Of a stretch of DNA of 64,000 bases, positions 13,351-41,733 are shown piece by piece (the stretch's first letter is position 1; each line of letters begins with the position of its first letter). The translations under genes and the position numbers were made by a program. The notes beneath the pieces are model-generated. The model did no database searches. It was not told the origin of the DNA and saw only the letters and a list, made by a program, of their open reading frames with translations. The stretch comes from Bacteroidota bacterium (GTDB taxonomy: Bacteria; Bacteroidota; Ignavibacteria; Ignavibacteriales; Ignavibacteriaceae), in the NCBI GenBank assembly GCA_022573715.1, contig JACZTL010000005.1:7265-71264 (forward strand). The letters run 5' to 3'.

Positions 13351-14586
13351 ATGAGGGATTTTTGGTTTGAAATGAAAGAGGGATTATTTATTGCGCTTCG
13401 TGCACTTAGATCAAATAAGGTACGTGCAACACTTACAATGCTTGGTATTATTATTGGTATTACATCAGTAGTTTTAATGACAACAGCAATTAAAGGTATA
13501 GATGGAGCATTTCAGAAAGGTATAAGTGCTTTAGGCTCTGATGTTTTATATATTGATAAATTTGCCTGGTTTGGTAATAGAGATTATTGGAAGATGCGAA
13601 ACAGAAGAAATCTTACTATGGATGATTATACTAGATTTAAAGGATTAGCAAAATTACCTAAAGCTTTTGCACCTGTCCTTAGATCAAGAAAAACTATCAA
13701 ATTTGGTGACAAAAATGTAGAAGGAGTAATTCTTATAGGTTCAACTTCAGATTATGTAGCTACAACTAATTTTACTTTTAACCTTGGTAGATTTTTTTCT
13801 CAAACTGAAAGTAAATCTGCGAGAGATGTTGTAGTACTCGGTAGTGAGGTTGCAAAAAAAATATTTCCTCGAGGTAATGCATTAGATAAAAAAATAAAAA
13901 TTGGGAATCACAACTTTAAAGTAATTGGCGTATTAGCCGAGCAGGGAAGTTTTATTTTAGGAAGTTTTAATCCTGATAATCAGGTGTTTTTACCAATAGG
14001 ATCAATATTTAAATATTACCTTAATAGATCAAGGGGTTCAATTACAATAAATATTCGAGCCCAAAATCCGGCAATGGTTGACGATACAAAAGCAGAAGCA
14101 ATTGGTGTTATGCGAAAAGTAAGAGGACTTAAATACGACGAAGAAGATGATTTTGCAGTTAATCAACAAGAAGGTTTAATGAATAACTTTAACAGTATAG
14201 TTGGTGTAATACAAATTGCTGGATTATTTATTACAGGTTTAGCTTTATTTGTAGGTGCAATAGGTATTATGAATATTATGTTTGTTTCAGTTAAAGAAAG
14301 AACAAAAGAAATCGGTTTAAGGAAGGCAATTGGTGCTAAAAAAAGGACAATTTTGGGACAATTTATCTTAGAATCTTCTGTAATTTGTTTATTTGGAGGT
14401 TTAATAGGATTACTTTTAGCTGTCATTTTAAGCATGGTTATTGATCAATTTCTACCTACTTCAGTTCAATACAGTGCTGTGATAATAGCAATTGTAATTT
14501 CTTTAATTACAGGGGTTGTAGCAGGATTTGCTCCAGCTTACACTGCTGCTAAGATGGATCCAGTAACAGCTTTGAGGTATGAATAA
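13351..14586 (+). CDS. ABC transporter permease, FtsX/MacB family
   Basis: N-terminal TM, a large periplasmic domain and a C-terminal FtsX 3-TM bundle (KERTKEIGLRKAIGAKK). Ends ...DPVTALRYE. Confidence 0.85.
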   Translation: MRDFWFEMKEGLFIALRALRSNKVRATLTMLGIIIGITSVVLMTTAIKGIDGAFQKGISALGSDVLYIDKFAWFGNRDYWKMRNRRNLTMDDYTRFKGLAKLPKAFAPVLRSRKTIKFGDKNVEGVILIGSTSDYVATTNFTFNLGRFFSQTESKSARDVVVLGSEVAKKIFPRGNALDKKIKIGNHNFKVIGVLAEQGSFILGSFNPDNQVFLPIGSIFKYYLNRSRGSITINIRAQNPAMVDDTKAEAIGVMRKVRGLKYDEEDDFAVNQQEGLMNNFNSIVGVIQIAGLFITGLALFVGAIGIMNIMFVSVKERTKEIGLRKAIGAKKRTILGQFILESSVICLFGGLIGLLLAVILSMVIDQFLPTSVQYSAVIIAIVISLITGVVAGFAPAYTAAKMDPVTALRYE

Positions 14587-15818
14587 TGAATTTATTACAA
14601 ATTTTATCAGTTTCTTTAAACTCACTAAAAAATAATAAACTTAGAGCAGGTTTAACAATTTTGGGTGTAGTTGTAGGTATTTTTTCTATAATTGTAATAA
14701 TGACTATTATTACAATGCTCCAATCCAGTATAGAAAACGGTATGTCTCAATTAAGTCAGAATACATTCCAAATACAAAAAATGCCTTTTTTAAGAACCGG
14801 TGGACATGCAGAAAGAAGAAAATTTAGAAACCGTAAAGACATTACACTTGAAGATTTTTATAGATTTAAAAAATTGTTAAAAGGTGCACAATATGTAGGC
14901 GCCGAGCAATGGCAATTCGGTAAAATTATAAAATATAAGAACCTATCAACAAATCCTAATATTCAAATTGCAGGAGAAACAGTTGACGGACTTAAAACTA
15001 ATGATTGGCATGTTGCATACGGCAGAACTATTAATCAACAGGATGTTGACCATTCAAAAAATGTTTGCTTAATAGGTAATGATGTTGTTGAAAAATTATT
15101 TCCCAATATAAATGCAGTGGGGCAGGTTATACGTGTTCAAAATTATCCGTTACAGGTAATTGGAGTTTTGGAAAAGAACCCTCAAATGTTTGGTAACAGC
15201 AGGGATAATAGAGTTGTAATGCCACTTTCTACATTTCAGAACCTCTACGGAAAAAGAAGCCGAAGTGTAAATATCATGGTTATGGCTGAAAATAAAGAAA
15301 ATTATGATCAAGTGATTCAAGATGCTATTGGTTACATGCGTACAATTAGAAAGGTGAAACCCGGTGAAGAAAATGATTTTGAAATTTTTAGTAATGAGTC
15401 ATTAATTCAACAAGTAAATGTAATGACATCAGGAATTAAAATTGGTGCTTTGGTTATATCTATTATTGCACTGCTTGCTGCAGGTATTGGTATTATGAAT
15501 ATTATGCTAGTTTCGGTAACAGAAAGGACAAGAGAAATAGGTATAAGGAAAGCAGTTGGTGCCAAAAAATCTAATATCTTAATACAATTTTTATTAGAAG
15601 CAATAGTACTATGTCTTATAGGAGGATTTATAGGTATTTTGTTAGGGGTTGGAATAGGTAACTTTGCGGGTAGTTTCATAAATGCACAGGCTGCAATACC
15701 ATATGATTGGGTAGCAATTGGTTTGTCTTTATGTGTTATGGTTGGAATTATATTTGGTACATATCCTGCTTATAAAGCATCTAATTTAGATCCTATTGAA
15801 GCATTGCGACACGAATAA
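14586..15818 (+). CDS. ABC transporter permease, FtsX/MacB family (paralog)
   Basis: Same architecture as the preceding gene (TERTREIGIRKAVGAKK; ends DPIEALRHE). ATGA overlap with the upstream gene. Confidence 0.85.
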   Translation: MNLLQILSVSLNSLKNNKLRAGLTILGVVVGIFSIIVIMTIITMLQSSIENGMSQLSQNTFQIQKMPFLRTGGHAERRKFRNRKDITLEDFYRFKKLLKGAQYVGAEQWQFGKIIKYKNLSTNPNIQIAGETVDGLKTNDWHVAYGRTINQQDVDHSKNVCLIGNDVVEKLFPNINAVGQVIRVQNYPLQVIGVLEKNPQMFGNSRDNRVVMPLSTFQNLYGKRSRSVNIMVMAENKENYDQVIQDAIGYMRTIRKVKPGEENDFEIFSNESLIQQVNVMTSGIKIGALVISIIALLAAGIGIMNIMLVSVTERTREIGIRKAVGAKKSNILIQFLLEAIVLCLIGGFIGILLGVGIGNFAGSFINAQAAIPYDWVAIGLSLCVMVGIIFGTYPAYKASNLDPIEALRHE

Positions 15819-15931
15819 TTCTGTTATTAAAATCTCTTATATAAAAAGTATAAAATTTAATTTAGGTTTTGTTATATTAATTGTATTATTAAATTAATAT
15901 TTAAATTGATATAATTATCTGGGGAATTGAA

Positions 15932-16072
15932 TTGTTAATTTCAGAATCCTTTTCAGTATCACTCCATCCTATTAAAAGCTATAAATTAAGAGCAGGATTA
16001 ACTATTTTTGGTACATATCCTGCTTACAAAGCTTCCAACCTTGATCTAATTAAAGCACATCGATATGAATAG
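15932..16072 (+). pseudogene. internally deleted relic of a third FtsX-type permease gene
   Basis: My translation is LLISESFSVSLHPIKSYKLRAGLTIFG|TYPAYKASNLDLIKAHRYE*. The left part matches the N-terminus of 14586..15818 (LLQILSVSLNSLKNNKLRAGLTILG). The right part matches its last residues (FGTYPAYKASNLDPIEALRHE*). Confidence 0.6.
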
Positions 16073-16238
16073 AAGTTTTTAATAAATTAAAAAAAAATTA
16101 AGAATTCTCTTTACTTATTATTAACAATTATTTATATTCTTATTCCCTTCCAAATTTTGATGAAGGCAATACTAAGGGAGTAGATATTAAATATTTGTAT
16201 TTGCTAACCTTGCTATTAACATATTAAACCTGAGGAAT

Positions 16239-17066
16239 TTGCTTATGACAAAAGTTATATCCGTAGCTATTCCAAAGGGGGGTGTTGGCAAATCTACTAC
16301 TGCAGTTAATTTAGCTGCCAGCTTTGCAATAGCAGAAAAGAAAACATTATTAATTGATTTTGATGCAACCGGCTCAAGTACAATTTGTTTTGGTTTTGAC
16401 AAGAAAGATATTATTGGAAATATCTTTGATGTATTGAGTTTTAAAATAGCAATTGGTGAAGTAATTTGTAAAACTGACCTTTCCAATTTAGATTTAATAC
16501 CATCTAAGATTCAATCTACCGATGAAGAAAGACTGCACAAAATCACTAATAACTTCCTTCTCTTTAGTCACATTTTACACGAAGAACAATTTACCATATA
16601 TGATTATATCATAATTGATTGTCCCCCATATTTACAAGGACTTACAACTATTTCTTTAATTAGTTCTGATTCGGTTATTCTGCCTGTAAAAGCAGGCAAA
16701 TTTTCTTTAACTTCTATCAGCAAAATGATTGAATATATCGGATGGATAAAATCCAGGTATAATTCTCGTTTAACAATAGAAGGCATTCTCTTAACAATGT
16801 ACGAGCCAAATACTACTGTCTGGAAAAAGACTTCTAATAAGATAAATGAGAATTATAGTGATTTAGTTTTTGATACAGTCATCCCCCGAAACACAACTCT
16901 TTGTGAAAGTGAGTTTTTTGGTAAACCAGCTGTTTTAATCAATTGTAATTCATCGGGAGCAAAAGCTTATTTGAAATTTGCACGAGAGATACTGTCAAAG
17001 GAAAAAATCAACAAACATGAACCAATAGTATTGAATGTAGCTTATAGTATAGGTTTGAGTCATTAG
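16239..17066 (+). CDS. ParA/Soj-family P-loop ATPase, no ParB partner in the window
   Basis: Deviant Walker A KGGVGKSTTAVNLAA and a Soj-like C-terminal region (VIPRNTTLCESEFFGKPAVL...GAKAYLKFAREIL). ATG at 16245 is the more likely start: GAGGA lies 8 nt upstream of it. Confidence 0.8.
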   Translation: MLMTKVISVAIPKGGVGKSTTAVNLAASFAIAEKKTLLIDFDATGSSTICFGFDKKDIIGNIFDVLSFKIAIGEVICKTDLSNLDLIPSKIQSTDEERLHKITNNFLLFSHILHEEQFTIYDYIIIDCPPYLQGLTTISLISSDSVILPVKAGKFSLTSISKMIEYIGWIKSRYNSRLTIEGILLTMYEPNTTVWKKTSNKINENYSDLVFDTVIPRNTTLCESEFFGKPAVLINCNSSGAKAYLKFAREILSKEKINKHEPIVLNVAYSIGLSH

Positions 17067-17107
17067 TCGATCTTTAATAATAATTTGTGGATGAGCAGGT
17101 TATTACT

Positions 17108-17320
17108 TCAATTTTTTAGTTTCAATTTCTCTATTTTTTGATCTAATTCTTCAATTGTTTCAAAAATTTTTTCCATCTCTTCTTCCTCAATGTATGTCTC
17201 TTTACATTCAGAGCAAACAAAAGCCGGAAGTTTTTTTATATCTAAATTATAATCGGCTCGTTGAATATTAAATACAACATAATCAATAAACATATCATTG
17301 TAACATTTCAAACATTCCAT
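17108..17320 (-). CDS. YgiT/MqsA-type zinc-ribbon protein, putative antitoxin
   Basis: 70 aa with CxxC...CxxC (CLKC...CSEC) followed by an acidic tail. It overlaps the upstream DUF4258-like gene by 13 nt. Confidence 0.6.
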   Translation of the reverse strand: MECLKCYNDMFIDYVVFNIQRADYNLDIKKLPAFVCSECKETYIEEEEMEKIFETIEELDQKIEKLKLKN

Positions 17321-17637
17321 ATATCTTCTCTGTTTTTAGAATTATCATCCCATTTTTTTTCTTCAGGCAAATAAGCAGTAATTATCTGAAGGAAGTTTTC
17401 AGTGGGATAACAGACTAAATGTATATATCTTTTTTCATTACCTCTTCCGCTTATCAAACAAGTGTGTCCACGTGTATCAAAAGGATAATCTTCAATTATC
17501 TCACAACTATTTATCACTTTATGGATCTCATTAGGAGATATCATTCTGTATTGTTTAACACACTGTTTGGCAGAATGCATAGTAAATAAAATATTTTTAT
17601 CTGCTGATTGTTGTATTTTTAAAATTAAATCATTCAT
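17308..17637 (-). CDS. DUF4258-like protein, putative toxin
   Basis: The pattern H...R.IS..EI..VI...EIIEDYP.D.RG..CLI.G......YIHLVC.....L.IITAY.P....W matches my recollection of the DUF4258 family, which is typically paired with YgiT-type zinc-ribbon genes. Confidence 0.6.
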   Translation of the reverse strand: MNDLILKIQQSADKNILFTMHSAKQCVKQYRMISPNEIHKVINSCEIIEDYPFDTRGHTCLISGRGNEKRYIHLVCYPTENFLQIITAYLPEEKKWDDNSKNREDIWNV

Positions 17638-17790
17638 ATTTTTAAAGTAAATTTTTGTAAGTAGAGTAAATATAAATATTAAGCAGAATAAATTAAATTA
17701 TTATTTGATGTATTTATTTACTTTAATTATTTCCTTGCAAGATTAAAACTCTAATTTTAGATTAAAGTTAAATTTTAAAATAATCTACTT

Positions 17791-20700
17791 TTGAAATTCT
17801 TAAAACAACTTAAGATATTTTGTGCATTTATTTTTCTATTTCAATTAAATAGCTACGCGCAAAATAACTTCAAATACATAACACACACCGATACATTATT
17901 AATCAATTATGAAAATTTATATAAAGTATCTGGCCTTACGGTTATACCATCAACTGAAACTATTTACTTAAATAATAAAATACTAAATAGAAATGAATAT
18001 AGTTTTACTTATTCAAAAGGTATATTTACCCTGTCGGATTCACTGTATTACTCAAATTATGATACTCTAATTGTTGTATATAAATCTTTGAGATTAGCAT
18101 TAAACAAAGAATATAAAAAAAGAACGTTAATAAGAAAGTTAGATAAAACAAAAAGTGACAGTATAAGTTATGTGGTTAGAGAAACAACATCTTTAACTGA
18201 AGAATCTATTTTTGGAAGAAATATGCAAAGAAGCGGAACTATTGTAAGAGGATTTACTTTTGGCACAACAAAAGATTTTTCTTTAAACAGTGGTTTGAGA
18301 TTACAACTTTCCGGGTGGTTATCTGATGATATAGAAGTTGTTGCAGCTTTGACTGATGAAAACACACCAATTCAGCCGGAAGGCAACACAGAAAGGTTGG
18401 AAGAGCTTGATAAAGTTTTTATTCAGCTAAAACATCCAAATGCTCAGGGTACTTTCGGTGACTATTTTGTAAAAAAGCAAACTGGTGAATTCGGTGTAAT
18501 CGATAGAAAATTGCAAGGATTAAAAGGTGAATTCAATTATAAATCTTCAGCTGGTTTTATATCTTTTGCATCCTCAAAAGGAAAATTTAATACAAATTCT
18601 TTTAACGGACAGGACGGAGTTCAGGGACCATACAGATTAACTGGGATTAATAATGAACCTGATATTATAGTTATTGCAGGGACAGAAAAAGTTTATATAG
18701 ACGGTATTCTGCAAAAGAGAGGTGAGCATAATGATTATGTAATTGAATACGGTAATGCCCAAATAACATTTACTCCGAATAAATTAATTACAGTAGACAG
18801 TAGAATAAATGTGGACTTTGAGTATACAGATAGACGATATTCGAGAAATTTTTTTGGTGCAGGAAGTGTCACAAAATTTTATAACAATAAACTAAAACTT
18901 AGTTTTCAATATATAAGAGAAGGCGATAATCAAAATGCACCAATTGATATATTACTGACAGACACAGATAAAGATATACTGCGAAACGCCGGAGATGATA
19001 TCAATAAAGCAACAAGAACCGGTATTTCACTTGCACCAAAAGATTCCAACGGTATAAGACAGGGTAGGTATGAAAAAATTGATACACTTATAAACAACAA
19101 ATCTTTTTCTTTTTACAGATATAATCCGGGTAACCCAAATTCAATTTACAACGTTGCATTTAGTTTTATTGGTTCTGCTAAAGCTGATTATTTACGTGAA
19201 AGTTTAGGCGTGTTTAAGTTTGTAGGTATTGGAATGGGTACATATTTACCGGTAATATTTTTACCCATGCCCCAATTAAATCAAGTGGGGAATTTTATAA
19301 TTAACTATAAGCCTAAAGATGGAATTGATCTTAGCTTTGAGTACTCGGGTAGCATTTTTGATAGGAACAGATTCTCTGATTTGGATGACAACAATAATTT
19401 TGGTTCGGCAAGAAATATTCATCTAAATATTTCTCCGCAAAAAATAGTTATAGGTAATTTTAAACTCGGGAAAATAGGTTTAACATATAAAGACAGATTC
19501 ATTAGCAATAAATACAGTCCGATTGACAGAATTAATACTATTGAATTTAACAGAGATTATAACCTAAATTCTTCTTTGGCTAATTTAGATCAAAATTTGA
19601 GAGAACTAAATCTTACGTACCTACCTTCAAAAAATTTATCAATTAATTCATTCTTTGGATTTTTAAGACAAGGTTCACTCTTCAAATCTGATAGGTATAA
19701 AAATACTATCCAGTATAATAAGGGTAATGATATAAATGCTTTTTATAATATTGATTTTGTTAAAACTGAAAATACAAATTTTACATCTAAATGGACCAGG
19801 CAGATAGGGGAAAGCAAATTTAATGTTTTCGGACTAACATCCGGTCTTAATTATTTAGCTGAAAATAAAGAAGAGATTAATTTAAATTCAGATTCATTAT
19901 TGGGCGGTAGTCTCAAGTATTATGATTATACTCCTTATTTATCTTACGAAAAGATAAATGGGTTAAAATTATCCTTCAAATATTCTTTCAGGAAAGATTA
20001 TGCTGCAATATCCGGGGATCTGTTAGAACAGGCAAATTCACAGGGTCAATTTTATGAAATTAATTATAGCGGTACTAGAACAATAAATACACACTTAACT
20101 GTTGTTTTAAGAAATAAAATTTTCGAAAAAGAATTTAAGGACAGAGGATTTAAAGACAGTAAAACAGTTTTAATTCGGTCTATCTCAAATATAAGATTAC
20201 TGCATAATGCTTTAACAGGGAATATTTTTTACGAAGTATCTACGCAAAAAACTGCAAAACTTCAGCAGATATTTGTTAAAGTTGAAAAGGGAAAAGGGAA
20301 TTTTATTTTTCTAGGAGATTTGAACAAAAATGGGATTCAAGATGAAAATGAATTTGAGCCTGCTTTATTTGACGGTGATTATATTAAAATTACTATTCCG
20401 ACAGATGAATTATTCCCTGTTATTAATTTAAAAACAAGTACTAATTGGAGAATAAGGTTTTCTGAATTTGTGAATAAAAATTCAACCTTAGGTAGGATTT
20501 TAAAACCGTTATCTATAGAAACTTTTTGGAGAGTTGAAGAAAACAGTCGCGAGGAAGATCTAAAGAAAATATATCTTTTAAATTTTTCATCGTTTCAAAA
20601 TATTATAAACACAATACGTGGTTCAAACTTTATTCAGCAAGATGTATTTATAAATGAAAATTCTTATGAATTCTCTCTCCGCTTCCGATTTACTCAATCA

Positions 20701-31600: not shown

Positions 31601-34384
31601 ATGCTTAAAAAGATACTTATTATTTTACTGCTATTTATTTTTATAATATTTTTAGATTCTTGCGGTACTAATACTGAAATAATTCAAGATCAAAAGATAG
31701 ATACCGCTAAAATAAATACAAATGAAATTATATCTCAATTATTAGAACAGGCAAGACAGGACTATCTGACAGCATTAGAAAAACAGAAGACCGATAGTGA
31801 GGTAAAAGTAATTGATTATTTTGAATCAGCATTGAATACAATTAGTAGTTTAAGTTATTATCCGGGCATTGAAGATAATGAAGCCTATAATGAATTAGAA
31901 AATTCTATAGTAGAAGATTATAAAAGTTTTCTGGATAAACTTGATAAAATACCTACTGATGTTTCAATTTCTGCTTTGGATGAATGGATGAGTAAATCGA
32001 TTCCTGAAATTGAATTTACTGCAAAAAAAACTACAATAAAAAGAAAAAAATTCGAACCTTCCGGTTACAATTCTGAAATTCCCCTTGAAATAAATCCAAT
32101 TGTTCAGCAATGGCTCGATTATTTTCAAAATAAAGGAAGTGGGGTAATAAAAAGATGGTTTGAACGCTCAGGAAGATATTTCCCTATGATGGAAAAGATT
32201 TTCAGAGAAGAAGATGTTCCGAGACAGCTTTTATACCTTAGTATGGTTGAAAGCGGTTTAAACCCAAGAGCGCGTTCTTGGGCAAGAGCCGTTGGAATGT
32301 GGCAGTTTATAAGAGGCACAGGAAAATTGTACGGTTTAAAATCAGATTTTTATGTTGATGACAGAAGAAATCCACAACTTTCTACTAGAGCTGCAGCAAA
32401 ACATTTGAAGGACCTATATAATGAATTAGGTGATTGGTATTTGGCAATAGCAGCATATAATTCAGGAACTGGATGGATAAAGAGAGCAAAAAATAGATCA
32501 GGAGGGGATGAATTTTGGTCCATTAGATGGTTTTTACCAAGAGAAACAAGGAATTATGTTCCTCAATATATTGCCGTATGCATTATTGCTACAAATCCAG
32601 TAAAATACGGTGTTAAGGATTTGGAATATAAAAAGCCATTTGTATATGATAAATTTCTTGTAAAAGGAGCTATTGATATGCATTATTTGGCTTCAATTGC
32701 CGGTACATCTTTAAAAACTCTACGCAATATGAATCCCGAATTAACACAACAAAGTACGCCTACAGCAAAACGAGGTGGATATTATCTGAAAATTCCCAAA
32801 GGTTCTATTAAGAGATTCGCAAAGGGAATGCAAAACATTCCTAAAAGTGCAAGAGTTCATTTCTTATTTCATACTATTAGAAGGGGAGAAACATTATCCG
32901 GAATTGCACATCGTTACAGAATATCTACCAATAAGTTAGCCGATGCAAATAATATATCTAGACGATCAAGGATTTATGTTGGTCGTAAATTAAAAATTCC
33001 TGTTCTTAATGTTTTAAAACAGAATTATGCTTATAACCCGGATTTAACAACAGCAGTTGATAAAAATTCGCAGACTTACAAAGAGTCAATAGTAAATAAC
33101 CAAGATATTGCAGTCGATGATCTGCCAAAGATCAATCAGAATTACATTGTACCTGATGGTTTTGTTTCTGTTGATTACACCGTAAAGAGGAAGGACAGTT
33201 TAATAGGAATCGCGGATCTTTTTGAAGCAAGAGTAATTGACATTAGAAACTGGAATAACATACCTTATACTTCATCGTTTATAATAGGACAAAAATTAAA
33301 AATTTATGTGCCCAAGGAAAAGAAAGACTATTTTGTAAAATTGAACGAAAAGAATAAAGATACACTTTTCACTGTAATTCCTGTCATCAAAAAGAGTAAA
33401 GGCAGATGGCAATACCATAGAATAAGATACGGTGAAAGTCTCTCCACAATCGCAGAGAATTATGGTGTAAATGTTAGAAGGCTTAAAAGTTGGAACGGAC
33501 TGAGAAGCAGCAGAATCTATGTTGGCAAGCGATTAAGAATTTACGGTTTTGAAAGGAATTATGTAAGAAAAAAAGTAGCAGCTAAAAAAAATACACCAAA
33601 AGGAAGGTACACTTTATATAAAGTAAAAAAGGGGGATACCGTTGGTGAACTTTCGGAAAAGTTTAATGTATCTGTACGTGATATAAAAAGTTGGAACAAT
33701 CTAAGAACAAGCAGAATTGTTGCAGGCAAAAATTTAAGGATATACAATATTAAAAAAATTGTAATAACCAAAAAAGCAAAAACAACAAAAACAAGAAAAC
33801 AAGAACCGAATGATAAAAATATAATTTATTATACTGTTCACGAAGGTGACGCAATAAGTATAATTGCAGAAAAATTTGCCGTTTCAATTTCTGATATAAG
33901 AAAGTGGAACGGACTTAGTTCAAATAAAATAAGATACGGTAAAAAATTAAAAATAGTTTTAGAACCTGAGAAAAAAGTTGCTCAAATAAATTCTGAAAAA
34001 ATAAAAAAAGATAAAACAAAAAAAGAAAAACCTGTAAAAGGAATTTATGTTTTGGTAAAATCAGGAGACACAATAAGCCAAATTGCCGAAAAATATAACG
34101 TCTCTTCTAAAGAAATAAGAAACTGGAATAAATTAAAGGGCAATAAAATTATTGCAGGCAAAAAACTTAATATAATTCCAAGACCAAAACCCATTACAAA
34201 AGAATTAAAAAACAGCACTCAAGCCATTGTGAAAAATAACGGAAAAAAAATTCACATTGTTAGTAACGGAGAATCCCTCTGGACAATTGCAAGACAATTT
34301 AACACTTCAATAAAAAAGCTAAAAGAAATAAACTCTTTATACTCAAATAAACTTATTATAGGACAGGAGCTAATTGTTGAGTGA
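31601..34384 (+). CDS. MltD-like lytic transglycosylase lipoprotein with seven LysM domains
   Basis: Lipoprotein signal (LDSCG). SLT catalytic region ([25 protein letters not shown]...AAYNSG). Seven LysM repeats of the form Y.V..GD(T/S)L..IA......(I/L)..WN.L....I..G..L.I. Confidence 0.85.
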
Positions 34385-34465
34385 TTAAATATTTCGTACA
34401 TTAAAAGTAAATTTTAGCGGGGTTTTTATGAAATTATTATTTCCTTTCATTTTCTCATTTCTTTT
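34289..34465 (+). repeat. direct repeat copy 1 (3' end of the mltD-like gene plus downstream sequence)
   Basis: Aligns with 35259-35437 at an offset of 970-971 bp. A 70-bp core is identical (34373-34442 = 35344-35413). The coding-side flank has scattered mismatches and one indel. Confidence 0.85.
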
Positions 34466-34545
34466 TATAGTAAATATTAGTTATTCTGATGTGCCTGTGC
34501 AAGGACAATGAATATATACGGACGTCACCATCCAGCCAAAAATAC

Positions 34546-34581
34546 TTGACAAATACGTATATTATATACATATTAGTACGT
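34546..34581 (+). promoter_or_regulatory. putative promoter/operator of the TA cassette
   Basis: TTGACA at 34546-34551 is followed by an AT-rich -10 region. A 13-bp palindrome gtatat-t-atatac (34557-34569) is nested in acgta...tacgt (34555-34581). The antitoxin ATG lies ~25 nt downstream. Confidence 0.3.
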
Positions 34582-34592
34582 GCAAACTAATT

Positions 34593-34847
34593 TTGAGGAA
34601 GATTATGGATACTAAACTGACATTAAAGTTAGATAAATCAATTATTGATAAGGCTAAAGAATATGCTAAGGGGAAAAACATTAGTCTTTCAAAAATGATC
34701 GAGAATTATTTACAGGTTTTGACTAATAAACGAAATAGAGGAGTTAAAATTTCGCCATTAGTTGATAGTCTGATTGGAGTAATTAAGCTCCAAGAAAAAG
34801 ACTACAAAAAGGACTACACAAATTACTTATCCAAAAAATACAAATAA
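34593..34847 (+). CDS. DUF6364-like antitoxin
   Basis: MDTKLTLKLDKSIIDKAKEYAKGKNISLSKMIENYLQ fits the small DUF6364/RHH-like antitoxin pattern. The likely true start is ATG 34605, preceded by GAGGAAG. The stop overlaps the PIN gene start (ATAATG). Confidence 0.6.
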   Translation: MRKIMDTKLTLKLDKSIIDKAKEYAKGKNISLSKMIENYLQVLTNKRNRGVKISPLVDSLIGVIKLQEKDYKKDYTNYLSKKYK

Positions 34848-35257
34848 TGGATAAAGTATTAGTCGACACAAATATTGTTATTGACCTTTTAACTAAACGT
34901 AAAGAGTTTTATAAGCCTGCAAGTAGATTATTTACTTTATCAGATAACAAAGAAATAAAACTTGCGATATCTTCACTAACTTTTGCAAATACATTTTATT
35001 TGGTTTCGAAAGAATTGAATACAACGAAAGCAAAAGAAATTTTAAGGAAATTTAAACTTCTTGTAAAAGTACTACCGATGGATGATAAAATTATTGATTT
35101 GTCTTTAAATTCTGATTTTAAAGATTTTGAGGATGCAATACAATATTTTACTGCATTAGAGAATAAAATTGGAATTATTATAACTCGGAATTTGAAGGAT
35201 TTTAAGCTATCAAAAATTCCGGTAATGACAGCAGATGATTACTTGACAATGAAATAA
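34847..35257 (+). CDS. PIN-domain (VapC-like) toxin
   Basis: N-terminal VLVDTNIVIDLL with acidic residues placed as in PIN domains (D..E..D). 136 aa, translationally coupled to the upstream small gene. Confidence 0.8.
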   Translation: MDKVLVDTNIVIDLLTKRKEFYKPASRLFTLSDNKEIKLAISSLTFANTFYLVSKELNTTKAKEILRKFKLLVKVLPMDDKIIDLSLNSDFKDFEDAIQYFTALENKIGIIITRNLKDFKLSKIPVMTADDYLTMK

Positions 35258-35258
35258 T

Positions 35259-35437
35259 GCAAGACAGTAACAACACTTCTATAAAAAAGTTGAAAGAAAT
35301 AAACTCTCTATACTCAAACAAACTTATTATCGGTCAGGAACTTATTGTTGAGTGATTAAATATTTCGTACATTAAAAGTAAATTTTAGCGGGGTTTTTAT
35401 GAAATTATTATTTTCTATCTTATTTTCTTTTCTTTAC
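35259..35437 (+). repeat. direct repeat copy 2 (non-functional duplicate of the mltD-like 3' end)
   Basis: Begins 2 nt after the PIN stop. It encodes a remnant of the last LysM (..[27 protein letters not shown]) but with an early stop (gca aga cag taa). Confidence 0.85.
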
Positions 35438-35968
35438 TCGGAAGAGTATTCAGCTAATTTTAACGCAGAAGAATTAACTTCAGTTGTGTGTGTTTTTACA
35501 AGCTTAAAAAAAATAATCTTGCAGTATAGTTTAATAAATGTTTTATACGAATCTGCAAGTTAAGTAATAATTAGGAAACAGGAATTATTGATTACGTAAT
35601 TTAGAACGCTAAGCCCATTACTTAATAAAAGAATAATAAAATGGACACTTTGCAGAAATCAATACAAAATTCAGAACATTTCTTTTCTGAATATCAGATT
35701 ATTTTTTGGTCTCTTTTGGCCATCATATTAATTCCTTTAGCCGTACACTATCTTCAAAATAGGAAAGAAAAAAAAAAGACTCTTACATACATTTCGTGGA
35801 GGTAAATGGTATAAGGCATTAGGTATTACTTATCATCTATTTAAAGAAGCCAGACCTTATAGCAAATATTTTCATCGTGATGAAATCGAAAATATAATCC
35901 TAGAAAAAATCAACAACAAAAAAGATATTGTTCTTCTAGGCGCTCCCCTGCGAGGCAAAACCAGAACA

Positions 35969-37825
35969 ATGGTAGAGTGCATACGACAGCTTAAAAACAC
36001 ATTTGTATTAATCCCTTATCCTTCCGATTATAACACCGAAATTATATTTCCAAGGCAACACCTTCTTAGAAGAAAAAACAGAATTGTTGTTTTCAATGAT
36101 CTACAAAAATTCTTTGAGCCTGGCAAAGACATTTTGAAACTTATTGACAAAATAAAGGAACAAGATTGGCATATACTAGCTAATTGCAGAACAGTAGAAG
36201 AATGGGAAACCGTAAAACGTCTTTGGGGTATTTCATCGAACATATTAGAGCCGATTGAAATTCCAGAAGTAGATGAAAATTTTGCTTTGCAGGTTGCCGC
36301 GCTCAATGGAATTCCTCTTCCATCTTATTTCGATCGCAAAAATATTGGAACCATATTTGTCAATCTTGATGAAATGCGGCTAAGGTATAATTCCAAAATA
36401 TCCAACACTCAAAAACAAATACTTATCGCAATTAAAAAACTTTTATTTGTTGGAGTTAATAATTCAAAAGGAGAAATACTATTGTCATCAATAAAAGAGC
36501 TGACTGGCTTGCTCCCTTTACAGTTAACTGATCCTGAATGGCTAGACAATCTGACGGGTATAATTGAAAAAGGATTTGTTTCCGGATCGCATTTAGCAGT
36601 GGTTCCCGAACAGGTCTATTTCGACCTTATTATTGAGCCTCAACTTTCAATCGGAGATATCATAAATGACATTATAAAAATATCTGGAGAGAACAATCGA
36701 GTTTTAAACAAGCTGATCTACTCAGCTGAAACATCAGAAAAGGCAATCGATATTATTCGGGAATTTCAAAAAGCGAGCATCAAGCTTGATGTCTACCACT
36801 ATAATATAGCAATAGCTAAGCAAAAAAGTGAAAGGGAAGGGAAAAGATTATTGGATGAAATGATAAAAAAGGGAATTCCACCCGATGTAGTTACATACAC
36901 TACTCTCATCCATCTCTGCAAGGATTATAATTTAGCCGTTGCTCTCAAAACTGAAATGATAAAAAAGGAAATTGCGCCCAATGTTATTACATACTCTACG
37001 CTTATCAATCTCTGCAAGGATTATAATTTAGCCGTTTCCCTCAAAAATGAAATGATAAAAAAGGGAATCGCGCCCAATGTAGTTACATACACTACTCTCA
37101 TCCATCTCTGCAAGGATTATAATTTAGCCGTTGCTCTCAAAACTGAAATGATAAAAAAGGGAATCATGCCCGATGTAGTTACATACACTACTCTCATCCA
37201 TCTCTGCAAGGATTATAATTTAGCCGTTGCTCTCAAAACTGAAATGATAAAAAAGGAAATTACGCCCGATGTAGTTACATACAATACTCTCATCCATCTC
37301 TGCAAGGATTATAATTTAGCCGTTGCTCTCAAAACTGAAATGATTAAAAAGGGAATCACGCCCGATGTAGTTACATACAATACTCTCATCCATCTCTGCA
37401 AGGATTATAATTTAGCCGTTGCTCTCAAAACTGAAATGATTAAAAAGGGAATCACGCCCGATGTAGTTACATACAATACATTATTAGAAAAAGCTGAAAA
37501 TGAAGGAGATACAATTAAATGGATTATTGAATTTTGCTCAACAGACCTTATTCCCAATGCAAGAACTGCAGCAAGCCTTGAAAAAGCTATTCCCTTGTTT
37601 GTCGCAAGTTCAAGATTAAATGAAATGTTTGACATGTTGCTTCGTTTCAACCCAATATTGTTTTTCAGTTTGATTAGTAATTTTGATATTGATATAGTAA
37701 GCAAATTCATCTTAGAATTCCCTACCGAAATAAAATCTACAGATTTTAATAAACTTGGATTTGTTAATTATTATCTTCACCAAAAAAGGACTGATTTAGC
37801 GAAGAATTTTCTAGATATATGTTAA
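35969..37825 (+). CDS. largest intact ORF of the disrupted NTPase/PPR-like gene
   Basis: ORF-track entry of 618 aa. Contains a Walker-B-like IVVFNDL, a helical middle domain and the tandem repeats VVTY(T/N)TLIHLCKDYNLAVALKTEMIKKGI.P(D/N). Confidence 0.6.
   Translation: MVECIRQLKNTFVLIPYPSDYNTEIIFPRQHLLRRKNRIVVFNDLQKFFEPGKDILKLIDKIKEQDWHILANCRTVEEWETVKRLWGISSNILEPIEIPEVDENFALQVAALNGIPLPSYFDRKNIGTIFVNLDEMRLRYNSKISNTQKQILIAIKKLLFVGVNNSKGEILLSSIKELTGLLPLQLTDPEWLDNLTGIIEKGFVSGSHLAVVPEQVYFDLIIEPQLSIGDIINDIIKISGENNRVLNKLIYSAETSEKAIDIIREFQKASIKLDVYHYNIAIAKQKSEREGKRLLDEMIKKGIPPDVVTYTTLIHLCKDYNLAVALKTEMIKKEIAPNVITYSTLINLCKDYNLAVSLKNEMIKKGIAPNVVTYTTLIHLCKDYNLAVALKTEMIKKGIMPDVVTYTTLIHLCKDYNLAVALKTEMIKKEITPDVVTYNTLIHLCKDYNLAVALKTEMIKKGITPDVVTYNTLIHLCKDYNLAVALKTEMIKKGITPDVVTYNTLLEKAENEGDTIKWIIEFCSTDLIPNARTAASLEKAIPLFVASSRLNEMFDMLLRFNPILFFSLISNFDIDIVSKFILEFPTEIKSTDFNKLGFVNYYLHQKRTDLAKNFLDIC
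36791..37558 (+). repeat. tandem array of 8 x 96 bp coding repeats (32-aa PPR-like motifs)
   Basis: Unit starts are 36791, 36887, 36983, 37079, 37175, 37271, 37367 and 37463. Units at 37271 and 37367 are identical over 96/96 nt. The six central units are near-identical and the outer two are diverged. Confidence 0.9.
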
Positions 37826-38238
37826 ACGCATAATTATTACTTTTATAAGTATTCTGGAAATTATTGGTACCAGACTGGTGATGGAGCACGAGCGGAAGAA
37901 AATTATAAAAAAGCGGTTACACTTTCAGAAAACGAAATACAACGGGCAAGAATTTATAATAAATTAGCAGAACTTATTAAAGATCTCAACATAAATAATA
38001 AAATTGATGAGGCAATTGAATATTGCAAGCAATCTATTTACATCCAACCGGATAATTCGCCTGAAGCAAAGCAACTATTAACTTTTTTTACTATTGAATT
38101 TAATTCAATAGATGACTTATCAGAAAAAATAAAAGAACTTAAGATTAAATATAAAATTGGTAAAAAGACTATTTCAGTGGCATTAAGTGATATCAATGAT
38201 GAAATAAAAAAAAGTTTAATTAGAGAATATTTTTTATG

Positions 38239-38418
38239 ATAATACCAAGTCATTGTAGATTCAACGGTGGTTTTGTGTTCACCGGGTATTGAGTTAAAGT
38301 ACTGGACAAAGTTATAGTCAACATTTTTAATGTTTTCTTGTTTGACGATTTTCCCGGAAGAACCAACAGTAGTCAAATATGAAGTAAACTTGTGAAGATC
38401 GGTGCCTGTGTAATACAT
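38239..38418 (-). mobile_element. IS110-family transposase gene fragment (N-terminal ~60 codons only)
   Basis: MYYTGTDLHKFTSYLTTVGSSGKIVKQENIKN....GEHKTTVESTMTWYY resembles the IS110 DEDD N-terminus (GxDLHK ... hhhE.T..Y). Similarity stops near 38240. The rest of the track ORF is antisense to the + strand TPR-like segment. Confidence 0.5.
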
Positions 38419-38670
38419 TTGATATCTCCAAAATTTGTTAATGTTATTACTATCATAATTTGTTTTTTACTTATTGGAAATATCAAGTAGATCAAGGTAA
38501 CAGCTTTTTCACTTCCGGCATTTATGGTGTTCTTTAGTTTATTGTAATATTTTTTTAGCCCTTACTAATTCCCCATACCTTTATATTAAGCCTGTATTTC
38601 TTTAATTTTGGAATCAATTAAAACCTAATTATTAAAAACATTTTATTTAAAAATTACTGAAAGGAAATTA

Positions 38671-39120
38671 ATGTTATTAAAATTTCGAATTGCTGTTTTT
38701 ATCATAATTTCGCTGATATTTTCAGCACAATATTCTTTTGCTCAATCGCAAGAAAATAATCCATCAAATATAGAAGTAAACAAAGAACAGTTAATTAAAA
38801 AAAATGCTCAAACAAAGCACGAAATTGACAGTCTTAAAATTGTACTAAAGAATCTTGATGCAAACTTAAAGAAACATTTAAAAGTATTATATACACTCAA
38901 ATACGGTAAGAAAAAAGGAATTAGAATTTCTATTGGAAGCATTTGGAAAGGAATGACTGAGGATATGCTTAATGACAGTTGGGGTAAGCCGGATAGAACT
39001 AATAAAATAAAAAAGAAATGGGGAATTTTTACTCAGTGGTATTACGGAGATATAACATACTTTTTTAAAAACAGTAAATTAATTGAGTGGGAACAAAAAA
39101 AGAAGGATAAAAAAGGTTAA
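38671..39120 (+). CDS. secreted hypothetical protein
   Basis: Signal peptide (FIIISLIFSAQYSFAQ), a coiled-coil-like stretch and a small C-terminal domain (GMTEDMLNDSWGKPD) reminiscent of SmpA/OmlA-like folds. Confidence 0.5.
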   Translation: MLLKFRIAVFIIISLIFSAQYSFAQSQENNPSNIEVNKEQLIKKNAQTKHEIDSLKIVLKNLDANLKKHLKVLYTLKYGKKKGIRISIGSIWKGMTEDMLNDSWGKPDRTNKIKKKWGIFTQWYYGDITYFFKNSKLIEWEQKKKDKKG

Positions 39121-39125
39121 ATCAA

Positions 39126-40112
39126 TTGTTCAAAGTCGGTAAAATAGAAAGAGAAAAAGCCATTTTATTGGCGCCTATGGAAGATGTAACAGACATTTCA
39201 TTTCGATTGATATGTAAAGAACTCGGTGCTGATGTAGTCTATACGGAATTTGTAAATGCAGAAGGATTGATTCGTTCTTCGGAAAGGACGCACCAAAAAC
39301 TTAAAATTATTGAGGAAGAACGTCCGGTTGGAATTCAAATTTACGGAGGAAATACAAAATCAATGGTCGGGGCTGCAAAAATTGCAGAAGAAGAATCACC
39401 CGATTTAATTGATATAAATGCTGGCTGCTGGGTCAAAGGTGTAGTAAAATTAGGTGCCGGAGCCGGTCTGTTAAAAGACCCCGTTTACATGCAGAATTTA
39501 GTGAAAGAAGTTATTGATTCAGTTCAATTACCTGTAACGGTTAAAACACGTTTGGGCATTGACGATAAAAGTATTCAAATATTAGAAGTTGCAAAAAGGC
39601 TTGAAGATGCGGGAGCTTCTGCGCTTACTATCCATTGCAGAACAAGGGTAATGGGGCATAAGGGAGAAGCATACTGGGAGTGGATTCCAAGAATTAAAGA
39701 AGTAGTAGATATTCCAGTCGTACTTAACGGGGATGTATTAACACCACACGATGTAAAGGAAGCGTTTGATAAAACTAATGCAGATGGAGTAATGATTGCG
39801 CGGGGTGCAATCGGGAATCCTTGGATATTTAAAGAAGCCAAAGAACTTATAAATGATGGTTATATAACTACAATAATTGATGAAGAACTTAGAATTAAAA
39901 CATGCTTAAGACATCTTGAACTTGCAATAAAAGTTAAAGGAGAAAGAAGAGCAATATTGGAACACAGAAAATTTTATTCCGGTTATCTCCGTAGTCTTCC
40001 GAATGTATCGCAAATAAGGAAAGCATTAATGGTACCAGTTAGCTATGGTGAGATTGAAGATATTCTTTTAGACTATTCTGAAAAATTGAAAGGTATGAGT
40101 GTAACAGTATAA
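39126..40112 (+). CDS. dus: tRNA-dihydrouridine synthase
   Basis: LAPMEDVTD, IDINAGCW, KTRLG and HCRT motifs. TTG start. Confidence 0.9.
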   Translation: MFKVGKIEREKAILLAPMEDVTDISFRLICKELGADVVYTEFVNAEGLIRSSERTHQKLKIIEEERPVGIQIYGGNTKSMVGAAKIAEEESPDLIDINAGCWVKGVVKLGAGAGLLKDPVYMQNLVKEVIDSVQLPVTVKTRLGIDDKSIQILEVAKRLEDAGASALTIHCRTRVMGHKGEAYWEWIPRIKEVVDIPVVLNGDVLTPHDVKEAFDKTNADGVMIARGAIGNPWIFKEAKELINDGYITTIIDEELRIKTCLRHLELAIKVKGERRAILEHRKFYSGYLRSLPNVSQIRKALMVPVSYGEIEDILLDYSEKLKGMSVTV

Positions 40113-40148
40113 ATTTTAAACTATATTTTTAATCATCTAAATAAATAA

Positions 40149-40739
40149 TTGACAAACCTTACAAAGCATAAAACTGCCAAAATAATTTCAACATTATTTA
40201 TCCCACAATTTTTTACAATTCTGATTTTCCCTTTTCTTGCATTTAATTACGAGTCATTATTATTACAGAAATGGGTGGTTATATTTGCGGCTTTTACATT
40301 CGGATTCAGTGTACAATTATTAACTTATTTTTATATGATAAAGAAAAGAAAAATTAAACCTTTTGACCAAACAGAAAACAATGAACGAACAATTCCTTAT
40401 TTGGTTCAAATCGGTTTTTATTTAATAGGACTTTTTATATTATTATTTTTTAATATTAATCATCTGCTGATAATATTTTGGTCTACTTATATTGTTAATA
40501 ATTCTGTTCTCCTTATTATTAATTATAAGTGGAAAATAAGTTCTCATTCAATAGGAGTTGCACAACATTTTGCGTTGTTTATTTATCTGACGAACCCGGT
40601 TTATGTAGCATTTTTACCTATAGCTTATCTAGTTGGATGGGCGAGAGTGGAATTGAAAGTTCACGATAAATACCAAATTTTAGGTGGATTGCTTTTAGGT
40701 TTTTCTTTAACATATTTACAATTATATGTTCTTTTGTAG
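40149..40739 (+). CDS. PAP2-like membrane phosphatase
   Basis: Five to six TM helices with partial PAP2 motifs: SSHS and WARVELKVHDKYQILGG (compare SRxxxxxHxxxD). Confidence 0.5.
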   Translation: MTNLTKHKTAKIISTLFIPQFFTILIFPFLAFNYESLLLQKWVVIFAAFTFGFSVQLLTYFYMIKKRKIKPFDQTENNERTIPYLVQIGFYLIGLFILLFFNINHLLIIFWSTYIVNNSVLLIINYKWKISSHSIGVAQHFALFIYLTNPVYVAFLPIAYLVGWARVELKVHDKYQILGGLLLGFSLTYLQLYVLL

Positions 40740-40740
40740 A

Positions 40741-40919
40741 GGCTGTCTCAAAAGTTCTAGTTTTTGTGTCATTCCCGTGTAAACCTGTCCGCCGTACTTT
40801 GTATTTTGGAAGGCAGGCGGGAATTTAAAATTCCTAAAATAAAATGGATTCCCACTCCTGTCTGCCAACAGGCATGTCCGTGGGAATGACAATCTCTTAA
40901 AATCTACTGCGAGTCAGCC
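40741..40919. repeat. MITE/REP-like GC-rich element with nested inverted repeats
   Basis: Outer IR ggctgtctc / gagtcagcc (40741-40749 and 40911-40919, one mismatch). Inner perfect IR tgtcattccc / gggaatgaca (40767-40776 and 40882-40891). Internal motifs are ggcaggcgggaat and a hairpin cctgt-ctgcca-acagg. It starts 2 nt after the PAP2-like stop. Confidence 0.55.
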
Positions 40920-40983
40920 ATTACAAAGTTTTTTTGAACATTTAAAATTATAAATTTATATTTAATTAAATTATATACTGATT

Positions 40984-41733
40984 ATGATTTTATACGACAA
41001 ACAAGATTCTTACTCTATTCTTAAGCTTAATAATCCCGAAAAAAGAAATGCATTAAGTCCCGAACTTATTTTGCAGTTTAAAATAAAGTTAAAAGAAATT
41101 AAAAACGATGAAAGTGTTAAAGCACTTATTATTACAGGAGAAGGCAAAAGTTTTTGTGCAGGGGCTGATTTAAAATATTTAAATCAATTAAAAGATTATT
41201 CTACTATTAGAAATCAGAAAGACTCACAAAATCTTGCCGAATTTTTTTTAATGCTTTATAATATGCCTATACCTACAATTGCCGCGGTAAACGGAGCTGC
41301 AATTGCCGGAGGTTGCGGTTTGGCAAGTGTCTGTGATTTTATAGTTGCAGATAAATCAAATTCAAAGTTCGGTTATTCTGAAGTAAAAATTGGTTTCATA
41401 CCTGCTATCGTTTCGATCTTTTTGATTAGAAGAATTGGAGAGGGAAGAGCGAAACAATTTTTATTAACAGGTGATTTAATTAATTCCGAAGAAGCCAAAT
41501 ATTTGGGATTTGTAAATTATTTATCAGACGATGTTTTACAAACATCAATTGATTTAGCTGAAAGATTGTTAAAAAACTCGGCTTCAAGCATGAAAGAAAC
41601 AAAAATGATGATAAATAAAATATCAGGTATGAAAGTTAAAGAAGCAGTTGATTATTGCGTGCAGTTAAATGCAATAAGCAGAACAACAGAAGATTTTAGA
41701 AAGGGGTTAGATAAGTTTTTAAACAAAGAATAA
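40984..41733 (+). CDS. enoyl-CoA hydratase/isomerase (crotonase) family protein
   Basis: FCAGADL oxyanion-hole motif and AAVNGAAIAGGCGLA. Confidence 0.85.
   Translation: MILYDKQDSYSILKLNNPEKRNALSPELILQFKIKLKEIKNDESVKALIITGEGKSFCAGADLKYLNQLKDYSTIRNQKDSQNLAEFFLMLYNMPIPTIAAVNGAAIAGGCGLASVCDFIVADKSNSKFGYSEVKIGFIPAIVSIFLIRRIGEGRAKQFLLTGDLINSEEAKYLGFVNYLSDDVLQTSIDLAERLLKNSASSMKETKMMINKISGMKVKEAVDYCVQLNAISRTTEDFRKGLDKFLNKE

Follow-up and report, generated by a model that had tools for sequence, protein, structure and literature searches.

Probable homology-dependent insertion of a DUF6364/PIN toxin-antitoxin cassette at the 3' end of an mltD-like gene in Ignavibacteria

In Escherichia coli, phage 21 and the element e14 insert into icd and bring a replacement 3' end that differs from the resident one mainly at synonymous sites, so that icd stays intact and its displaced 3' end is kept as a fragment on the far side of the element. 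These elements have their own site-specific integrase and one fixed target. For insertion of the Campbell type, the classical counterpart is lambda dgal-type insertion by homology. In an E. coli experiment on DNA with one-sided homology, recircularised, truncated molecules had entered by a single crossover in 56 of 60 integrants, with target duplications of 109-950 bp (PMC3240628). Homology-facilitated illegitimate recombination (HFIR) has been described in natural transformation of Acinetobacter, Streptococcus and Pseudomonas stutzeri (summarised in PMC3240628). Here we examine a locus in a stretch of 64,000 nucleotides, which we call the window (C29:7265-71264 of a 47-contig metagenome-assembled genome (MAG) of Ignavibacteria; all plain coordinates refer to it). 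In this locus a toxin-antitoxin (TA) cassette with a DUF6364 antitoxin and a PIN-domain toxin lies between an intact mltD-like lytic transglycosylase gene and a second, displaced copy of the end of that gene. The two copies of the gene end come from different lineages, and the locus joins two haplotypes of separate history. In what follows, G numbers denote genomes (G002, G003, G005 and G006 belong to the same genus), L numbers denote contigs or loci and C numbers denote contigs within a genome.

The original prediction for this locus described direct repeats of ~175 bp at an offset of ~971 bp on either side of the PIN/antitoxin genes, with an identical core of 70 bp. Both features were confirmed. 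A repeat search of the window found an ungapped direct repeat (34301-34464 = 35272-35435; 164 nt, 91%, offset 971), and a gapped alignment with one indel extended it to 178 nt at 89.3% identity (34288-34464 versus 35258-35435). The perfect core of 70 nt lies at 34373-34442 = 35344-35413. The repeat unit consists of the last 27 mltD codons and the stop codon, an intergenic region of 43 nt and the opening 13-18 codons of a gene whose product is predicted to be sorted by the type IX secretion system (T9SS). The early stop reported for copy 2 is present as a TAA that arises from a 1-nt indel near the start of the copy, but the next 27 codons are intact and encode the same peptide as copy 1; the open reading frame (ORF) of 32 aa within copy 2 has a LysM Pfam match. 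As had also been argued, the repeats do not resemble the target-site duplication of a transposon or insertion sequence (IS), since they are 178 nt long, are 89% identical, have synonymous-only differences in their mltD part and enclose an insert that carries no transposase.

Each repeat copy runs into a short ORF that starts with MKLLF (34428-34511 and 35399-35563). These, described before as small ORFs, are not small genes but internally deleted remnants of a T9SS-sorted gene of ~245 aa that is intact in relatives. In G002 and in the marine-sediment contig L023, mltD is followed by a gene for a 247-aa protein that starts with MKLLFPFFF and has a C-terminal T9SS sorting domain. The internal deletions of the two remnants differ, removing codons 19 to ~238 behind copy 1 and codons 14 to ~200 behind copy 2. 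Behind the first remnant there is a short spacer that is the same as in the Logan contig L075, and then the TA genes. Behind the second, homology with sister strains ends at 35575.

Comparison of the 27-codon mltD part of the two copies revealed 9 nucleotide differences in 8 codons, all 9 of them synonymous, so that the encoded peptides are identical. For random substitutions such a synonymous-only pattern has a probability of ~1e-6 to 2e-5. The copies are therefore two functional alleles of different lineages rather than a gene and its decayed local duplicate, which supports the view that one of them was contributed by another lineage in which mltD is functional. As a cause of this pattern, selection on the fragment ORF of 32 aa was considered and judged unlikely, because sister strains lack a start codon for it. 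Taken with the two distinct deletions of the T9SS gene, the synonymous-only differences show that the locus joins two haplotypes of separate history. By sequence, haplotype A' would consist of mltD, the intergenic region, an internally deleted T9SS gene and the TA genes, and haplotype B of an mltD tail and intergenic region, then a T9SS gene with another internal deletion, and the native downstream genes.

There are mltD orthologues in all six other species of the genus, and those compared at this site (G002, G003, G005, G006 and L023) have no TA genes there. In G005 and G006, mltD is directly followed by a gene for a secreted protein of 149-150 aa and by dusB; in G003 the tail of the T9SS gene lies between mltD and the 149-aa gene with dusB. 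The stretch that is repeated in the window is single-copy in G002, L023 and L075. The last of these, whose PIN is 96% identical, has the mltD tail, the intergenic region, an intact 241-aa T9SS gene, 63 nt and then the TA genes, with no mltD fragment beyond them up to the contig end. L075 can thus be regarded as a donor-like haplotype with the TA genes in a simple position.

The original prediction named an assembly artefact as one finding that would overturn it. Such an artefact would be a collapsed or chimeric repeat in the MAG. The genome is in 47 contigs, the identical core of 70 nt is longer than common k-mer sizes, and a Logan unitig breaks exactly at the core. Against this, the parts have an identical order in seven other assemblies from seven different samples. 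The window haplotype recurs in L020 (99.7% identical), L021 (99%) and the Logan unitig L022, with a copy 1 sequence that is identical in L020 and L021, and sister haplotypes are found in L072, L073, L074 and L076. In all four sister contigs the copies differ from each other throughout, including within the core, and assembly is therefore unambiguous there. The artefact explanation is effectively refuted and retains next to no probability. L022 is 961 nt long and spans exactly 34413-35373, so that it starts with the final 30 nt of one core and closes with the opening 30 nt of the next. It was considered as a circle and rejected, as its ends fit a break of a k=31 unitig graph at the cores.

We put the probability at roughly 60% that the locus arose by the joining of two haplotypes through one illegitimate junction at the PIN stop together with homologous recombination, either of the Campbell type or by HFIR. 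One illegitimate join would have connected the PIN stop to mltD at -97/-81, at a short imperfect homology, and one homologous exchange would have occurred within the common ~180 nt. A fragment of a TA-bearing relative with the mltD end and the TA genes may have recircularised and inserted by a single crossover, or linear DNA may have entered with one homologous and one illegitimate end. The incoming piece would bring or keep a complete 3' end, leaving mltD intact and the displaced end as a fragment past the toxin gene. Afterwards the copies would trade sequence by gene conversion and the block would spread among strains by homologous recombination. The sequences show the anatomy, the homeologous nature of the copies, the conversion, the TA-less sites and the recurrence at other loci; the order of events, the form of the intermediate and the choice of newcomer copy are what we infer here. 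The insert is bracketed by direct repeats of a stretch that is single-copy at the empty site, and the repeats come from two different molecules, as is expected of Campbell-type insertion. The original prediction of Campbell-type insertion from a related strain thus stands with respect to the foreign allele, the haplotype join and the homology-based insertion, but not with respect to a circular intermediate; the structure may stem from a circular intermediate or a linear one, or from a tandem duplication followed by allelic replacement.

Several points weigh against this reading. Classical HFIR usually deletes recipient DNA (~1 kb) and uses microhomologies of 3-10 bp (PMC3240628), and here recipient sequence was duplicated rather than deleted. 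Comparison of the two repeat copies with relatives did not identify the foreign one, because the relatives are too distant and the distances too similar. A local duplicate that was later overwritten by foreign alleles could also yield the synonymous-only pattern, and patchy conversion is evident at this locus. The displaced fragment starts 0-22 nt past the toxin stop in eight loci, which is more regular than random fragment ends predict. Finally, the suggested search for an empty site turned up TA-less sites in related species but no TA-less strain of this species. Exact look-ups with the antitoxin, the remnant of 54 aa, the neighbour of 536 aa, the 149-aa protein and the T9SS protein of L075 returned only TA-bearing contigs or nothing, and one metagenome scan returned only a G002-like relative. 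Nor did these searches find a circle or excision product of the cassette, whose excisability had been proposed.

The junction at the toxin stop was then compared among cassettes and mltD alleles. Copy 2 had been said to start 2 nt past the PIN stop. The first 14-16 nt past the stop (TGCAAGACAGTAACAA) also accompany the cassette in the unrelated loci G165 and L085, where the tail after the toxin stop reads TGCCAGGCGGTAACAA, and the unambiguous mltD-derived part therefore starts at ~35272-35274. Some mltD alleles read GCCAGGCTGT at the junction position, and GCCAGGC.GT is common to cassette tails and some mltD alleles. In sister strains (e.g. L072) mltD-like sequence extends right up to the PIN stop. 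The strict overlap at the join is 2-5 nt (AA / AACAC) inside a patch of imperfect homology of 9-10 nt. These comparisons place the join within a patch of short imperfect homology, and it is the single novel junction at the locus.

That the sole novel junction sits in such a patch would also suit an in-situ tandem duplication, in which sister chromosomes exchanged unequally where the cassette tail and mltD -97 share a short homology. Such an exchange would have doubled everything from the mltD tail through the TA genes, after which the second TA would have been lost and ordinary homologous recombination would have put a foreign allele in place of one copy; the locus does show clear signs of allelic replacement and conversion. 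However, this explanation needs extra steps (the second TA must be lost precisely, two deletions must arise independently and one copy must be exchanged), it must recur at six loci with the same synonymous bias, and no array with two TA pairs occurs in any of the eight assemblies. We consider it rather unlikely.

A further explanation for the junction is that an integron integrase moved the TA genes, as an integron-type cassette, into mltD at a secondary GTT site. Contig C1 of the genome carries an integron integrase gene (TIGR02249, 409 bits versus a cut-off of 265), related cassettes in G165 and L085 have inverted ends (GTT(T/A)CCGCC ... GGCGGTAAC), certain homologues lie in arrays with other TA pairs and repeats between them (L037), and the bottom strand of mltD reads GTTAAAT at the junction. 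Against these stand a window copy that has just a 16-nt tail and no attC, with a fold of 35255-35330 of -0.9 kcal/mol (z=+1.1); putative sites in G165, L083 and L085 that fold no better than shuffles; a junction that lies 3 nt off a G|TT crossover; and the lack of a GTT/AAC motif at the other five gene-tail junctions. The sole integron integrase is at C1:74584-75522, and the window is on C29. This leaves the integron explanation very improbable, and an integron-cassette reading of the window itself was rejected on its lack of attC and of a significant fold and on the misfit of the junction to G|TT.

Some features of the integrase region and of the related cassettes are recorded here in their own right. 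The integrase gene on C1 is on the minus strand, 945 nt from a contig end, and next to it come a lipoprotein gene and then a stretch that resembles attC; its cassette array is probably unassembled. The inverted cassette ends are at 4697-4735 and 5452-5519 in G165:C16 (L050) and at 1600-1650 and 2300-2330 in L085, with GTT(T/A)CCGCC upstream of the cassette and GGCGGTAAC after the toxin stop. These units and their neighbouring units have the common flanking motif ACCGGGCATAA / AACCG|TTAACC. The motifs may be boundary sites of cassette arrays, and no significant hairpin fold was found there.

We examined the identical core of the repeats in sister strains. In L072, L073 and L076 the copies are distinguished by 7 of 70-71 core positions; in the window none of the 70 positions differs, nor does any in L020 and L021. 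The window core is the same as the copy 1 core of L076 and is 7-9 positions away from the copy 2 types. Since the core is identical only in the window lineage and is of the copy 1 type, copy 1 has overwritten copy 2 over ~70 nt, and the core is a recent gene-conversion tract confined to this lineage. Readings of the core as a site for a recombinase or for attachment, or as the place of the founding crossover, were also considered and were rejected because sister strains differ there.

Exchange at the locus appears to have gone beyond the core. L072 and L073 are of the same species as the window, with 99-100% identity in the left flank but only 84% in copy 2 and 95-97% over ~2.8 kb to its right, as befits a recombined block. 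For L073, identity to the window is 99.5-100% in the left flank, 97% in the toxin gene, 84% in copy 2, 82% in the 149-aa gene, 95-97% over the next ~2.4 kb and >=99% from 41351 onward. By this profile 38551-41350, beyond the variable slot and 82-97% identical to L072/L073, is an imported recombination tract of ~2.8 kb. The copy 2 alleles of the three haplotypes encode an intact mltD-tail peptide (0-3 conservative changes) despite many synonymous differences, and they are mosaics with copy 1-type sequence, which argues for repeated conversion or replacement by functional alleles. Thus, the whole block seems to pass among strains by homologous recombination.

Within the order, we surveyed 65 loci with a homologue of the window toxin and scored whether the 900 nt to the left of the cassette and the 900 nt to its right share a repeat on the same strand. 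Flanking direct repeats were present at 26 of the 65 loci, compared with 4 of 191 in a control with mismatched flanks. At 300 random 670-nt positions of the window's genome any flanking direct repeat (counted at E<1e-3) was found 13 times, and all were far weaker than the repeat in the window. Short hairpin repeats and tandem-array cases were left out of the count of gene-tail duplications, leaving five further clear loci in which a gene is followed by the TA genes and a fragment of the gene (L048, L049, L131, L139 and L036). The repeat ends at the stop codon of the neighbouring gene in four or five of the six gene-tail cases. At L049 the fragment is more decayed in sister species and the TA genes are missing from two further species; at L131 the nearest orthologue is just 78% identical, too distant to point to the foreign copy. 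Pooling the six loci, the window included, gave 74 synonymous nucleotide differences and 24 non-synonymous codons, and this excess indicates that the homeologous character of the repeats is general.

The enrichment of flanking repeats could alternatively mean that the cassette is a discrete mobile unit with its own insertion mechanism, such as widely staggered cuts or replicative template switching, that duplicates tens to ~190 nt of target, the copies diverging later. Its edges are regular, one lying ~100-120 nt ahead of the antitoxin gene and the other 0-22 nt past the toxin stop, and certain repeats are 98% identical (L141). Neutral decay of such duplicates, however, predicts ~60% non-synonymous events, and we observed 24 of 98 in the pooled loci and 0 of 9 in the window. 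Moreover, no recombinase or transposase is linked to the cassette, and many of the short repeats either are hairpin elements that recur elsewhere in the genome or form part of tandem cassette arrays. We regard this explanation as unlikely.

Among the short repeats, L141 has a perfect 29-nt hairpin (GTAGTGAACGCAAA.TTTGCGTTCACTAC) on either side of the TA genes (G074:C1:785771-785799 and 786544-786572). Two more copies are present elsewhere in the complete G074 genome, and the hairpin looks like a low-copy repeated element at insertion sites; with four genomic copies of this hairpin, short hairpin repeats were dropped as candidate local duplications. In L037 (G281:C1), L107 and L109 the homologous PIN cassette is part of tandem arrays with a ParE/Phd-like pair and a GNAT gene, with repeats of 100-300 nt between them.

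Returning to the joining of haplotypes by homology, the five further loci and the enriched flanking repeats suggest that homology to a neighbouring gene is a regular route of spread. A bolder version, which we hold only tentatively and think more doubtful than probable, is that DUF6364/PIN cassettes are discrete, recombinase-free selfish units that spread with a piece of a neighbouring conserved gene as homology arm. Aberrant excision or recircularisation followed by a single crossover would then leave a gene, the TA genes and a displaced gene end, with homeologous repeats. If this is true, TA-module movement would leave in this layout a general signature that has so far gone undescribed, and the repeats could also serve excision and re-export.

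The cassette itself appears to be a compact type II TA unit comprised of a promoter with a palindromic operator, a DUF6364 antitoxin gene, a PIN_3 toxin gene and a tail of ~16 nt. As in VapBC-like systems, the gene of a PIN-domain toxin follows a small antitoxin gene that overlaps it and has its own predicted promoter and operator; the roles of toxin and antitoxin are assigned by family membership only. A promoter scan matched the promoter-like site TTGACA at 34546 at 10 of 12 positions, and TACGTA inverted repeats are kept upstream of 25 homologous cassettes. The toxin has 6473 homologues at E<=1e-20. Homology of the G165 cassette to the window begins at ~34538, with 84% DNA identity over 34538-35273. 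The coordinates of all features are collected in the table.

Table 1. Features of the mltD-TA locus, in window coordinates, and repeats at the five further gene-tail loci
Feature	Position	Strand	Description
mltD-like lytic transglycosylase, intact	31601-34384	+	SLT and 7 LysM domains (ORF and Pfam); last 27 codons (34301-34381) inside copy 1
Repeat copy 1	34289-34466	+	mltD tail, stop, 43-nt intergenic region, 5' end of T9SS-gene remnant
MKLLF' remnant	34428-34511	+	T9SS-gene codons 1-18 fused in frame to the last ~9; compared with intact G002 (247 aa) and L075 (241 aa)
TA promoter/operator (predicted)	34541-34604	+	TTGACA at 34546, TACGTA-type palindromes
Antitoxin, DUF6364, 80 aa	34605-34847	+	Pfam E=1e-27; stop overlaps toxin start
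Toxin, PIN_3/PIN domain, 136 aa, VapC-like	34847-35257	+	PF13470 PIN_3 E=6.7e-19; PF01850 E=2.8e-8
Junction patch TGCAAGACAGTAACAA	35258-35273	+	Common to distant cassette copies; resembles mltD at -97 to -82; putative site of the single illegitimate join
Repeat copy 2	35259-35437	+	Displaced mltD tail: 27 intact codons and stop (35274-35355), intergenic region, T9SS-gene codons 1-13
MKLLF'' remnant	35399-35575	+	T9SS-gene codons 1-13 joined to degenerate C-terminal ~45 codons and downstream sequence
Strain-variable filling	35576-38550	.	Broken membrane-anchored P-loop/PPR gene and IS110-like fragment
Conserved right flank	38551-40112	+	149-aa secreted protein (38671-39120), dusB (39126-40112); genus and sister-strain synteny resumes
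L048, HAD hydrolase gene			Repeat 176 nt, 92%
L049, acyl-CoA dehydrogenase gene			Repeat 57 nt
L131			Repeat 190 nt
L139			Repeat 101 nt
L036			Repeat 83 nt

The space between mltD and the 149-aa gene with dusB is a slot with conserved flanking genes and alternative cargo among strains and species. In the window it holds the TA genes, a PPR gene and an IS fragment; in L072-74 it holds the TA genes and, in place of the window filling, a gene for a 536-aa T9SS protein. Among other species the slot contains the T9SS gene (G003) or nothing (G005, G006). The PPR gene of the window (35641-37825) encodes a membrane-anchored P-loop NTPase with 32-residue PPR repeats, is broken in two where the reading frame changes in an A10 run (35768-35777) and is missing from sister strains. 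The IS110-like transposase fragment (38038-38418, minus strand) lies just left of 38551 and has weak copies in G002 and G006. In L015 (G003:C38) a run of N at ~7290-7390 sits right where the mltD tail gives way to the tail of the T9SS gene and makes the G003 junction unreadable. In G002 and L023 the T9SS gene is followed by fni and other genes; the fni group of the window's genome is on C32 (~14350-20464), indicating a rearrangement at the slot within the genus.

The movement of chromosomal TA modules that have no recombinase of their own is poorly understood. The locus offers a dated, multi-strain natural example in which one can compare a haplotype resembling the donor, the product of the join, subsequent conversion and the passage of the entire block between strains. 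For annotation, it explains short LysM and gene-tail pseudo-ORFs that adjoin TA genes. It also calls for caution, since diverged repeats can hold a perfect core that stems from conversion and is not an attachment site.

Compared with described systems, the cassette resembles VapBC-type modules in its PIN-domain toxin behind a small overlapping antitoxin gene with a palindromic operator, and it shares with these and with the TA cassettes of chromosomal integrons a compact form, its own promoter and many genomic contexts. It differs from the former in that its antitoxin is DUF6364 and not a characterised VapB fold, and from the latter in that the window copy has no attC and lies outside any integron. 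The slot is like the minimal mobile elements of Neisseria (PMC3787668) in that strain-specific cargo between conserved genes is exchanged by homologous recombination of the flanks; unlike here, the two-flank crossover exchange of those elements leaves no duplication. The intact gene with its displaced end recalls phage 21 and e14, but the insert of ~0.8 kb has no integrase and at least six different target genes are used. HFIR has in common with the locus one homologous anchor in a conserved gene, one illegitimate join, apparently at short homology, and a gain of ~1 kb of foreign DNA, and differs in normally deleting a similar length of recipient DNA where we find a duplication. Campbell-type integration at E. 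coli lacZ (PMC3240628) is alike in that direct repeats of the homologous target enclose the insert (109-950 bp there, 57-190 nt here), one illegitimate junction links insert and repeat, and the process calls for no dedicated recombinase. Here, by contrast, the event would be a natural one between diverged lineages, with homeologous repeats and TA cargo, and no circular intermediate was seen. The mechanism proposed here can be regarded as a natural variant of known homology-dependent insertion, and its recurrence around one TA family may be the new part.

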